Shown piece after piece: positions 21,792 to 23,721 of a stretch of DNA of 64,000 nt. This DNA is from a bacterium (lineage in GTDB: Bacteria; Planctomycetota; B15-G4), in the NCBI GenBank assembly GCA_030428785.1, contig JAUIEF010000007.1, positions 1,333 to 65,332 on the forward strand, given 5' to 3'. Positions within the stretch are counted from its first letter, which is position 1. Each line of letters begins with the position of its first letter. Both the position numbers and the translations under genes were made by a program. Below the pieces are notes generated by a model. That model was given only the letters and a program-made list of their open reading frames with translations, did not search any database and had not been told where the DNA came from.

Positions 21792-21826
21792 GCGCGACGG
21801 GCGAGGGGAACGGGATCGCGTTTTCG

Positions 21827-22093
21827 GCCGAAGCCGAAGCCGAAGCCGAAGCCGAAGCCGAAGCCGAAGCCGAACCCGAACCCGAAGCCGAACCCGAACC
21901 CGAAGCCGAACCCGAACCCGAAGCCGAACCCGAAGCCGAACCCGAAGCCGAACCCGAACCCGAAGCCGAACCCGAAGCCGAACCCGAAGCCGAAGCCGAA
22001 CCCGAACCCGAACCCGAACCCGAACCCGAACCCGAAGCCGAACCCGAAGCCGAAGCCGAACCCGAACCCGAACCCGAACCCGAACCCGAAGCC
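21827..22093 (+). repeat. hexanucleotide array 1: 44 units of GCCGAA or CCCGAA
   Basis: Counted directly. 8 perfect GCCGAA units (21827-21874) come first. After them, only the first base of each unit varies (G or C), aperiodically. Totals are 20 G-units and 24 C-units. The array starts 35 nt after the ThiF-like stop. No start codon lies in the EA/EP frame. Confidence 0.95.
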
Positions 22094-22201
22094 TCCTCTC
22101 GCTTCGCGAGAGTTCGGCGGCCGCTCACTTCGTGAGCGCCCCACAAGACTCCGGGGACACGACGTCGGTGGTCACCCGGCTGCGTGCTCGACGCACTGGG
22201 C

Positions 22202-22273
22202 GGGACTCCTTTCCTGGAATCGGGCGGGGCCCCCACTGGGCGTCACCCCACCCGATTCCAGGAAAGGAGTCCC
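22202..22273 (+). promoter_or_regulatory. perfect 23-bp hairpin sequestering the RBS of the four-helix-bundle gene
   Basis: GGGACTCCTTTCCTGGAATCGGG (22202-22224) is the exact reverse complement of CCCGATTCCAGGAAAGGAGTCCC (22251-22273). After one mismatch, 4 more bp pair (22226-22229 with 22246-22249), leaving a 16-nt loop. The 3' arm contains AGGAAAGGAG and ends 4 nt before ATG 22278. Confidence 0.7.
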
Positions 22274-22277
22274 TCAC

Positions 22278-22598
22278 ATGTTCGACGTCCTCGAGATCGC
22301 GATCCGCATGGTGGCCTCGCTTCGCTCGCCGTTGGCGACGCTCCAGGTGTGTGATCGCGACATGCACCGCCAGGTTCGGAGAGCTGCTGCCTCGGTGACC
22401 CTCAACATCTCCGAGGGTCAGCGTCGCGGCGGGAAGGATCGCCGGCATCACTGGCGCGTTGCGGCAGGTTCGGCGGACGAGGTGCGGACCGCGTTGCGTA
22501 CCGCGGTGGCGCTGGGTGACCTGCGCGAGGAGGACCTCGCCGAATCCTTCGAGCTCCTCGACCGCGTGCTCGCCATGCTCTGGAAGCTCACGCACTGA
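22278..22598 (+). CDS. four-helix-bundle protein (23S rRNA intervening-sequence protein / Avd-like family)
   Basis: Carries [42 protein letters not shown]. This matches the family hallmark xLRRAAxSIxxNIAEGxGR....F..IA.GSxxE. 106 aa, predicted all-helical. Confidence 0.8.
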
Positions 22599-22607
22599 CG
22601 AAGCGCC

Positions 22608-22636
22608 CCGCCCCGGCGGTCGAACCGCCGGGGCGG
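22608..22636 (+). terminator. GC-rich stem-loop after the four-helix-bundle gene (candidate intrinsic terminator)
   Basis: CCGCCCCGGCGG (22608-22619), loop TCGAA, CCGCCGGGGCGG (22625-22636). The stem is a perfect 12 bp and begins 10 nt after the stop. It is followed by TTCCGGTTTCGGTTTCGG, the T-richest stretch locally and the start of array 2. Confidence 0.45.
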
Positions 22637-22744
22637 TTCCGGTTTCGGTTTCGGTTCCGGTTTCCGATCCGGCTTCGGGTTCCGATTCGGCTTCGGTTTC
22701 GGCTTCGGCTTCGGCTTCGGCTTCGGCTTCGGCTTCGGCTTCGG
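22637..22744 (-). repeat. hexanucleotide array 2: 18 units NTTCGG/NTTCCG, inverted relative to array 1
   Basis: Counted directly. The 5' units are degenerate. The last 7 units are perfect CTTCGG (22703-22744). 22698-22744 is the exact reverse complement of 21828-21874. Confidence 0.95.
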
Positions 22745-22905
22745 AGCCGAGCGCGCCAGATCCCGTCATGGGACACCCGAATTCCGAGCACCCGTCCCGG
22801 CGCGGATCACTCCCGCCCCGCCCGCCGTAACCGCCACGGCACCCCGCCTGTTCACGCGGACCCGGTAGAATCCCCGCTCCCATCGCCGCCCGAAGGAGGA
22901 GAGCC

Positions 22906-23523
22906 ATGTCCGTCCGCGCCCCCGTCGTCCTCGCGCTGCTCGTCGCGACGTCGATCGCCTGCTCGACGCAGTACCACGCCACGGTGTCGAAGGACTTCAC
23001 CGTGCCGCAGACCGTCGCCGTCGTCGCCGTGGTCGACGCGCAGAACGCGGAGGGCTCGTTCCTCGTGGCGGGCATGTCGAAGGCGTTCCCGTTCGACGAG
23101 GACCTGCTCTCCGACAAGCTCACCCGCTACCTCGTGGGCCAGCGGCTCTACTCGGTGGTCGAGCGTGCATCCATCTCGCAGGCGATCCAGGAGCTGTCGC
23201 TCACGACGAGCGAGCTCTTCGACAACCGCGAGGCGCAGCAGAAGCTCGGCGTGCTGTGCAAGGCGGACCACATCGTCATCGCCCGCGCGTCGATGAGCTC
23301 CGGCTGGCTCGTGCTGCCGCCGATCTGGTGGAAGTACGCCGTGCTCGAGGCCCGGGCGATCGACGTGGAGTCCGGCCGCATCATGTGGGCGGCCCACGCC
23401 GGCGGCTGGAACTACTACGTCCTCTCGTCCGACGCGCACCTGGAACGACTCGTCGGCGACCTCTTCCACGAACTCGACGAGGGCATCGAGAACGTGCGCG
23501 CGCAGGAGGCGGCGGGCGGCTGA
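22906..23523 (+). CDS. lipoprotein, CsgG/LpoB-like fold suspected
   Basis: Strong RBS GAAGGAGGAG ends 5 nt upstream of the ATG. Lipobox LLVATSIACST. The pattern VAVVAVVD...LxDKLTRYLVGQRLYSVVERASISQAIQEL...GVLCKADHIVIARAS resembles CsgG/LpoB-type periplasmic lipoproteins. This is a by-eye assignment. Confidence 0.6.
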   Translation: MSVRAPVVLALLVATSIACSTQYHATVSKDFTVPQTVAVVAVVDAQNAEGSFLVAGMSKAFPFDEDLLSDKLTRYLVGQRLYSVVERASISQAIQELSLTTSELFDNREAQQKLGVLCKADHIVIARASMSSGWLVLPPIWWKYAVLEARAIDVESGRIMWAAHAGGWNYYVLSSDAHLERLVGDLFHELDEGIENVRAQEAAGG

Positions 23524-23565
23524 GGCGGATCCGCCGCCCCCACCGGCTCGAGGCCGCCCCATCGC

Positions 23566-23721
23566 GACCGCGGGTTCGACCGCGGGTTCGGCCTCGGCTT
23601 CGGGTTCCGCCTCGGCTTCGGGTTCGGCTTCGGCTTCGGGTTCGGGTCCGGCTTCGGCACCGGCTTCGGGTTCGGCTTCGGCACCGGCTTCGGGTTCGGC
23701 ACCGGGTTCGGGTTCGGGTTC
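23566..23721 (-). repeat. hexanucleotide array 3: degenerate GGSTTC units in the same orientation as array 2
   Basis: Begins with a tandem 12-mer GACCGCGGGTTC x2 (23566-23589). GGCTTC/GGGTTC units follow, interspersed with GGCACC and CGCCTC. Starts 43 nt after the lipoprotein stop. Confidence 0.9.

Follow-up and report, generated by a model that had tools for sequence, protein, structure and literature searches.

Hexanucleotide arrays in a Planctomycetota genome accompany a dispersed four-helix-bundle gene cassette of probable transposon origin

The window analyzed here, a 64-kb stretch of DNA of 74% G+C from a Planctomycetota bacterium (lineage B15-G4, contig JAUIEF010000007.1), carries three tandem arrays of GCCGAA-type hexanucleotides, A1, A2 and A3, around a small gene coding for a four-helix-bundle (4HB) protein. 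Our results favor, with moderate confidence, the explanation that these arrays are (CCGNNN)n tracts, integral and fast-evolving parts of a dispersed, multicopy 4HB cassette that is probably transposon-derived. An original prediction, made from the letters of the window, had placed an array behind each of three genes in a row, the first of them a ThiF/MoeB-family gene. This description did not hold, because nine homologous ThiF loci in relatives are array-free and the arrays follow the 4HB gene instead. The organizing principle is the 4HB gene, not one array per gene.

Results

Association of the arrays with the 4HB gene

With an alignment of closely related 4HB proteins, 80 homologous metagenome loci (48-65% identity) were retrieved, and in 48 of the 64 that were assessable Tandem Repeats Finder detected a period-6 array no more than 400 nt ahead of the 4HB gene. 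The distance from array to ATG clusters at 180-192 nt among the homologous loci and is 184 nt for A1 by the same measure. A downstream array was present in 27/76 loci, mostly 3-60 nt past the 4HB stop. Array density beside the 4HB gene is about seven times that of the remainder of the same loci and is zero in the nine ThiF-relative loci; all these array counts are minimums, because the ends of at least 11 contigs fall within an array. A1 occupies the canonical upstream position in an intact 4HB cassette and is not a 3' appendage of the ThiF gene.

All 55 upstream arrays contain about 1.0 CpG per 6 nt; on the 4HB sense strand the core is CCG in 47 and CGG in 8, and the remaining three unit positions vary between and within arrays (CCGGTT, CCGGGT, CCGCAG, CCGAGG, CCGGAG, CCGATT, CGGCAT and others were seen). 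Two arrays in one locus share the unit type, direct or inverted. Orientation relative to the 4HB gene is not fixed, L195 and L144 having direct arrays around convergent gene pairs, and for this reason the arrays would be expected to act on DNA. The prediction that such arrays are mutable was borne out: units are GCCGAA in the window and GCCGGA in the near-identical cassette of L121, homologous arrays are 30 to 337 nt long, and many contigs break within arrays, all of which points to unit gain, loss and turnover. The arrays also appear to mediate deletions.

A scan of a genome collection for (SCCGAA)5 returned 120 loci, 16 of which were inspected. Such repeats occur in many taxa, and some are read-through coding repeats. 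The 4HB gene adjoins the array at two loci, L115 and L020, in 'Deltaproteobacteria' genomes from metagenomes, and the layout of L115 is that of the window.

Related elements with a transposase

A unit of about 2.3 kb is common to five loci of a sister lineage (L129, L131, L139, L142 and L168), in the order terminal inverted repeat, ~45-nt spacer, array, DDE transposase, rod leader, 4HB gene, inverted array, ~45-nt spacer and terminal inverted repeat. The terminal inverted repeat, N-CTAG-GAGCSCGTA, measures 14-23 nt; its motif occurs on both sides of the unit in L129, L131 and L168, only on the left side in L142, and was undetected in L139. The transposase, present at all five loci, matches PF01609, PF05598 and PF13751 and is of IS1182/IS5 type. 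The transposon spans are as follows.

L129, 244-2548
L131, 1135-3487
L168, 135-2567
L142, from 303
L139, transposon

In this sister lineage the arrays are subterminal repeats within a transposon that also carries the 4HB gene, and the copies resemble the IS5/IS1182 superfamily in their DDE_Tnp_1/DUF772 transposase, their 14-23-bp terminal inverted repeats and the CTAG at both ends. Since this transposon holds the succession of array, leader, 4HB gene and array, the cassette family would derive from a transposon. The window copy would then be a non-autonomous, decaying member of that family, a status that we infer because the window is without the sister-lineage transposase and terminal repeats.

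Layout of the locus in the window

The features around the three arrays are given below, in window coordinates.

20721-21791, plus strand: ThiF/MoeB-family adenylyltransferase gene (PF00899, E=2e-65; NCBIfam MoeB/ThiF)
21792-21826, plus strand: 35-nt spacer from the ThiF stop to A1, containing ACGGGAT (sequence)
21827-22090, plus strand: array A1, 44 units of GCCGAA/CCCGAA (Tandem Repeats Finder, pattern scan, unit-by-unit reading)
22091-22277, plus strand: structured leader (RNA fold, conservation in L121 and homologous loci)
22278-22598, plus strand: 4HB gene, 106 aa, PF05635 '23S rRNA IVS (intervening sequence) protein'/TIGR02436, Avd-like (family models)
22608-22636, unstranded: 12-bp GC hairpin CCGCCCCGGCGG-TCGAA-CCGCCGGGGCGG (sequence; conserved in L121, L211 and L212)
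22637-22744, minus strand: array A2, 18 TTCGGC-type units, GCCGAA-type on the minus strand (Tandem Repeats Finder, unit-by-unit reading)
22745-22812, unstranded: cassette tail past A2 (conserved with the L121 copy)
22906-23523, plus strand: lipoprotein gene with a weak CsgG-like match (family search)
23566-23721, minus strand: array A3, about 26 degenerate TTCGGS-type units, GAASCC-type on the minus strand (Tandem Repeats Finder, unit-by-unit reading)

The arrays lie where they had been predicted, far above chance expectation. Tandem Repeats Finder placed A1 at 21828-22090 (period 6, 43.8 copies, 91% matches, indel-free), A2 at 22640-22744 (period 6, 17.5 copies) and A3 at 23583-23722 (period 12/18), with a 12-nt sub-repeat at 23565-23602. 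Read unit by unit, all 44 units of A1 are GCCGAA or CCCGAA, and those of A2 are degenerate at its 5' end. A pattern of three SCCGAA units, allowing up to 2 mismatches, gave 71 matches against 0.05 expected from shuffles, and 71/71 fall inside A1-A3; a periodicity scan likewise found period-6 tracts only there, which agrees with the statement that the 64 kb hold no further hexamer arrays. The unit counts are those of the assembly, because a 267-nt microsatellite may collapse or be mis-sized in a short-read assembly. The stop-to-array gaps of 35, 38 and 42 nt and the orientations (GCCGAA on the plus strand for A1, TTCGGC on the plus strand for A2 and A3) were confirmed, and the view that such arrays are unusual in bacteria was upheld. 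A1 is 81-86% complementary to A2 or A3 over up to 152 nt, its best inverted match being A3 (152 nt, 86%). None of the three is a CRISPR array, which would have repeats of 23-50 nt and unique spacers; these are head-to-tail 6-nt units, spacerless.

The 4HB protein scores 55.9 bits against PF05635 (cut-off 33.8) and 57.1 bits against TIGR02436 (cut-off 24), and matches PDB 2GSC (E=1.2e-5). The ThiF/MoeB gene is a host gene, outside the element: its TAG stop lies 35 nt ahead of A1, and the position of this stop is kept in relatives, which have no array there. The ACGGGAT motif of the spacer is also present outside A2 and outside the L211 array; local alignments of the spacer with these flanks share 7-8 nt only and are not significant.

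The ThiF locus in relatives

Relatives of the ThiF protein place the window among Planctomycetota. ThiF homologues 74-81% identical to that of the window lie in syntenic loci, with a convergent TPR gene 23-106 nt past ThiF; in the window this TPR gene is found at 29991-32474, and in one 5.3-Mb relative genome three other genes stand between the two. The intervening segment (21792-29965 in the window) is gene-free in three lineages, has three genes in the 5.3-Mb genome and has seven genes plus the arrays in the window. Neither arrays nor the cassette occur after ThiF in the nine homologous loci (0/9), and the whole array/4HB block therefore sits, with the lipoprotein gene and the genes that follow, in a lineage-specific island after ThiF. 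It had been proposed that absence from homologous loci would make the arrays a local curiosity. The absence stands for the ThiF locus, but the conclusion drawn from it fails, because arrays recur at homologous 4HB cassettes elsewhere.

Origin of A2 and A3

In L211 and L212, whose 4HB proteins are 76-78% identical to that of the window, two convergent 4HB genes, each with its own leader, have the GC hairpin in common, and this bidirectional hairpin is conserved in the window at 22608-22636. Arrays lie outside both convergent genes in L212, and L211 has the left array only. Convergent 4HB pairs were found in ten of the fetched loci. L121 has about 100 nt of the 3' end of the partner gene, then a short array remnant, then the tail, and in the window A2 stands directly between the GC hairpin and the tail that it has in common with L121. 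With intact pairs in L211/L212, a half-deleted one in L121 and the window as successive stages of deletion, A2 is most readily understood as the array that once stood upstream of a now deleted partner. On this alignment of loci, A2 would be the remnant array of a convergent 4HB gene whose coding region and leader have been deleted, and the inverted arrangement of A1 and A2 would result from loss of that gene.

A3 has no leader and no 4HB gene alongside, and its outer flank shows no significant similarity to the tails of A2 and L121; it matches A1 and A2 in type and is solitary. Long solitary (NNNCGG)n arrays without a 4HB gene nearby were also seen in L058 (441-597), L102 (3628-3963), L054 (5101-5335) and L086 (1493-1660 and 6251-6404), in Planctomycetota, Kofleriaceae and 'Deltaproteobacteria' genomes from metagenomes. 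They are built of blocks of differing units, for example (GGGATC)(GGGTTC)(GGCTTC), and some begin directly past a stop codon. The 4.6-kb segment between the two arrays of L086 was dropped from consideration, its open reading frame (ORF) calls being too ambiguous in GC-rich DNA.

A leader that pairs with the ribosome-binding site

The leader begins with two 7-bp hairpins (22096-22112 and 22122-22138) and continues with a 27-bp stem (22202-22229 with 22246-22273), and the ribosome-binding site AAAGGAG (22263-22269) lies in the 3' arm of this stem, just ahead of the ATG. The predicted fold has an energy of -116.8 kcal/mol (z=-8.1), and the leaders of the window and L121 are 87% identical (161/186 aligned positions). 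In 50/56 homologous loci, the stretch of 30 nt ahead of the ATG forms a duplex with upstream leader even though the sequences differ, the duplex averaging -47.7 kcal/mol against -27.5 for shuffled arms. Seventeen paralogues of one metagenome share a consensus rod of 53 pairs, 12 of them compensatory, in which the ribosome-binding site and the ATG are paired. These folds suggest that the leader stem probably holds off expression of the 4HB gene until it is melted or cleaved. An Rfam search of 21500-24000 found no rRNA and no leader family, only chance miRNA-like matches on the leader hairpin. The leader was also considered as a template for the hexamer unit and rejected: no consistent relation was found by eye, and the window and L121 share the leader and differ in the unit.

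Dispersal of the cassette

The 4HB protein of the window (P0250) falls in a 90% cluster with eight further NCBI variants, at least nine in all, which are 95-98% identical and lie on different contigs. In another sample, L121 has the same cassette with a 98%-identical 4HB gene and different flanks. Homology between the two loci covers the array (GCCGGA units in L121), the leader, the coding region and the hairpin, and resumes past the position of A2 for 67 nt before ending at about 22812 (score 62, against 16.6 +/- 3.2 for shuffles). Their 4HB codons differ by 27 synonymous and 2 non-synonymous changes, and judged by this comparison the 4HB protein is under purifying selection. The metagenome Ga0247727 contains about 25 copies of the cassette with largely unrelated flanks, inter-copy homology beginning at the array. 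Near-identical copies in different contexts, as a mobile cassette should have, were thus found among the NCBI variants, in L121 and in Ga0247727. The mobility of the 4HB-only copies is deduced from copy number and differing flanks, because no transposase, significant terminal inverted repeats or target duplication could be demonstrated for them.

Several details of the Ga0247727 copies (L145-L182) are recorded here as observations. TAG or CTAG stands directly before the array in about half of the 17 4HB-only copies examined; in several of the rest a shared REP-like element, CACGGAGGCACGTCGCGGCCTGACGGCCGCAACCAA, comes before it; and a subset of the copies shares a right-hand extension of about 90 nt that ends in GGTTAGTAGTACGGAG.

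Discussion

The canonical cassette consists of a hexamer array, a rod leader of about 185 nt, the 4HB ORF and the GC hairpin, and where a second, convergent copy is present, as it often is, arrays come to lie on the outer side of both genes. In the mechanism that we propose, the arrays would serve as reiterated subterminal sites, with CCG once per 6 bp as their sole conserved feature, and by analogy with other transposons they could be bound cooperatively by a transposase or by the 4HB protein. As tracts prone to slippage and recombination, they would expand, change units and give rise to deletions, while expression of the 4HB gene would be held off by the leader stem until this melts or is cleaved.

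Several results weigh against a transposon-derived cassette with the arrays as integral parts. The L168 transposase was not found in the window by tblastn, nor was the terminal repeat motif of the sister lineage; comparison of the left flank of A1 with the A2 tail, and of the A3 flank with the A2 and L121 tails, gave no significant terminal inverted repeats (p=0.17 and 0.81); and no target duplication could be demonstrated for the window cassette or for the 4HB-only copies. The unit differs between near-identical cassettes, so recognition by a protein could rest only on the CCG core. The sole locus recovered twice (L144/L147) had the same array length both times. Arrays exist without a 4HB gene, examples being A3 and the solitary ones that come after stop codons in metagenome-derived genomes of Planctomycetota and Kofleriaceae, and a 4HB gene was nearby in only 2 of the 120 loci of the (SCCGAA)5 scan. 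The arrays may therefore be an independent genomic feature, with the cassette landing beside them.

This last possibility makes homing into pre-existing arrays a serious rival, though one to which we give a low probability. On this account the arrays are intergenic microsatellites of GC-rich genomes, often past stop codons, and the 4HB cassette inserts into or beside them as its target. It would fit the array-bearing loci L058, L102 and L054 and A3, the rarity with which an array predicts a 4HB gene in the scan, and the co-oriented host gene that ends 0-40 nt ahead of the array in about 20 of 40 loci. It would also fit L195, where a symmetric convergent pair has the same (CGGCAT)n on either side in direct orientation, as though the pair had entered a single continuous array. 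The transposase-bearing form speaks for arrays as parts of the element instead, since there they are inverted and lie inside the terminal inverted repeats. In addition, paralogous cassettes share related units (CCGGTT/CCGGGT in Ga0247727, GCCGAA/GCCGGA in the window family) and the junction of array and leader is at a fixed distance, which is more in keeping with a cassette that carries its arrays.

We consider improbable a role in RNA, in which a transcript reading through from ThiF would pair A1 with A2 (or A3) in a stem of about 100 bp and RNase III would free the 4HB mRNA, as in 23S rRNA intervening sequences. The minimum-energy fold of 21792-22790 does pair the first ~18 units of A1 with the whole of A2 (z=-12.4), A1 and A3 are complementary over the 152 nt given above, and a sigma-70-like promoter was not found between ThiF and the 4HB gene. 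Moreover, the 4HB gene family occurs inside rRNA intervening sequences (PMC4990558), the stems of which are processed by RNase III. However, most homologous cassettes have an upstream array only, or direct arrays, orientation relative to the 4HB gene is not conserved, the cassette lies outside rRNA genes, and the lost convergent gene already accounts for the inverted arrangement. On these comparisons and fold predictions, an A1-A2 stem cannot be a general role of the arrays.

The spacing that first drew attention to the arrays, which begin 35-42 nt past three stop codons, could be expected if each were a 3' element of the preceding gene, that is a terminator, a Rho-loading site or an mRNA-stability element. 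A2 opens with T-rich units directly after the GC hairpin and has a terminator-like score, and the RNA of A1 would be C-rich, G-poor and unstructured. This explanation is nevertheless quite unlikely, given that the ThiF loci of relatives are array-free, that the arrays are associated with a downstream 4HB gene at a fixed distance, and that homologous arrays differ in strand, orientation and composition (CCGGTT is self-complementary, GCCGAG is G-rich).

There is similarly little to recommend a contingency switch, in which a change of unit number, or an inversion between A1 and A2/A3, turns the 4HB or lipoprotein gene on or off. Long, perfect microsatellites, a length range of 30-337 nt among homologues and the inverted pairs of the window are what such a switch would use. 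The arrays, though, stop about 185 nt short of the start codon and fall outside the leader stem, coding regions and promoter spacers, and the L144/L147 locus had equal array length when sampled twice. Inversion of the 4HB gene between arrays, which the original prediction had raised, is possible in principle at 81-86% complementarity, but none was evidenced, and orientation is constant within cassette subfamilies.

Translation of the arrays, whether into acidic (Ala/Pro-Glu)n peptides or into a (Pro-Lys)n extension, is hardly credible and was rejected on codon usage, the missing start codon, an ATG that is not conserved and homologous units that contain stops or break the frame, even though every frame is open through the arrays, a minus-strand ATG lies ahead of A2 and of A3, and the CCG-AAG frame of A1 is made of preferred codons and shares its phase with ThiF and the 4HB gene. 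An Ala/Pro-Glu frame through A1 would need 44 GAA codons, and the eight window genes use GAA for only 8/169 Glu residues (GAG, 161). The CCG-AAG frame continues without a stop from 21792 into the 4HB ORF, but no ATG, GTG or TTG occurs in it before 22278. The minus-strand ATG beside A2 is GCG in the near-identical L121 copy, some units of homologous arrays carry stop codons (CCGTAG, CCGTGA), some arrays have periods of 7 and 13 nt, and the array frame is inconsistent relative to host stop codons among homologous loci. Codon usage, start codons, conservation and the units of homologous arrays thus agree with the earlier view that the arrays are intergenic and non-coding. The accompanying statement that they have no usable start codon needs correction for A3, where a minus-strand ATG at 23739 would begin 'MTPMGSEPEP...'; coding is rejected there on the other grounds.

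Two observations on reading frames stand apart from this. The stop-free frame extends in phase over 21792-22595, from past the ThiF TAG through A1 (Pro-Lys/Pro-Asn, preferred codons) and the leader, and is probably a consequence of high G+C. In L115, a (TTCGGC)-type array at 2549-2797 reads in phase with the C-terminal end of a minus-strand PH-domain membrane protein, so the same repeat type may be coding in places.

Comparison with known systems

The family of the 4HB gene is best known as the PF05635 'S23p' ORF of 23S rRNA intervening sequences (PMC4990558). Like the IVS of Leptospira and Coxiella, the cassette has an ORF of this protein family in a small, apparently selfish insert, bracketed by complementary sequence for a long stem and with a long dsRNA-like structure beside the ORF. 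Unlike them, it lies between ThiF and lipoprotein genes and not in an rRNA gene or in helix 25 or 45, Rfam finding no rRNA; its flanks are hexamer microsatellites, often one-sided or direct, and not unique inverted repeats; and its conserved stem is 5' of the ORF, hiding the ribosome-binding site. A terminal stem as in an IVS can be formed in silico by A1 and A2, and most homologous cassettes are without an inverted partner array.

The dispersed, multicopy, transposase-free derivatives are also like non-autonomous elements derived from insertion sequences (IS) with a passenger gene (MITE/MIC), and the window copy differs from IS5/IS1182 elements in having no demonstrable terminal inverted repeats or target duplication. 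To our knowledge, long subterminal hexanucleotide arrays together with a conserved accessory 4HB gene and a structured leader are not among the features of described bacterial insertion sequences. In eukaryotic Ac/Ds elements, A/TCGG-containing subterminal hexamers are bound by the transposase, and PIF/Harbinger, a relative of IS5, has a separate DNA-binding protein that recruits the transposase. The cassette family may be likened to both in its many short CG-containing motifs just inside the element ends, and the two-gene layout of transposase plus small accessory protein would resemble PIF/Harbinger. The cassette differs from both in that its motifs, as putative binding sites, form perfect head-to-tail microsatellites and its accessory protein is a four-helix bundle and not Myb-like.

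Extending this analogy, one might tentatively suppose that standalone PF05635 proteins are DNA-binding accessory factors of IS5/IS1182-superfamily transposons, which would coat (CCGNNN)n subterminal microsatellites by way of the CCG every 6 bp, as a bacterial counterpart of the PIF/Harbinger accessory protein. In that case the genes for '23S IVS proteins', which number in the thousands across GC-rich genomes, and perhaps the intervening sequences of rRNA as well, would descend from such transposons in non-autonomous or domesticated form, and the rod would gate expression. We regard this broader proposal as speculative and rather unlikely.

Avd, the accessory protein of diversity-generating retroelements, has a homologous four-helix-bundle fold and belongs to the same family (PMC10053308). 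The window differs from such a retroelement in having no reverse transcriptase, template or variable repeat beside the 4HB gene, whose neighbors are the ThiF, lipoprotein and MBOAT genes; its repeats are hexamer arrays only. PDB 2GSC, matched by the 4HB protein, was deposited with five chains of matching sequence. Members of the Avd/PF05635 family are pentameric and bind nucleic acid. As for repeats near genes, the arrays are like the contingency loci of Neisseria and Haemophilus in being long, perfect, slippage-prone and made of short units, and unlike them in their period of 6, their CCG core, their location outside the coding region and promoter spacer, and their tie to one gene family across phyla.

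In the legend of Fig. 6 of one report, '23S rRNA IVP' and 'ThiF' both appear among CRISPR-adaptation-linked domains, from a screen that scored association with CRISPR-like repeats (PMC10910872). In the literature searched, hexamer arrays or this leader beside 4HB/IVS-protein genes were not found described. The comparison as a whole suggests that the cassette is IS-related, its subterminal tracts being unusual microsatellites and its accessory gene a conserved one, in an arrangement new to that literature.

Genes of PF05635/TIGR02436 are very common, often with many copies per genome, and we know of no function assigned to them outside diversity-generating retroelements. The present results give this family a testable genetic context, namely array, leader hiding the ribosome-binding site and ORF, together with a transposase-carrying version, in an arrangement that spans many uncultured GC-rich bacteria. 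They also single out, as a class, (CCGNNN)n microsatellites of bacteria, 30-340 bp long, which do not code for protein and are not contingency loci of the classical sort. Such arrays are a plausible cause of assembly breaks in GC-rich Planctomycetota and Myxococcota, and could be mistaken for coding low-complexity regions or CRISPR-like repeats.

Neighboring genes and other repeats

PADLOC defense models gave no match to the 4HB protein, the lipoprotein or a 372-aa neighbor, no relatives of the window 4HB protein were found among viral contigs, and tblastn against the plasmid collection gave no match. The lipoprotein gene, examined as a possible passenger of the cassette, has no homologue among the fetched loci; it is flanked on both sides by A2 and A3 in direct orientation. 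A convergent MBOAT gene is a further neighbor in the window. A perfect 12-nt palindrome, GGCGGATCCGCC, lies at 23524-23535, directly 3' of the lipoprotein stop and ahead of A3. Elsewhere in the window, Tandem Repeats Finder reported a 141-nt repeat at 5957-6213, with 1.8 copies and 75% matches.

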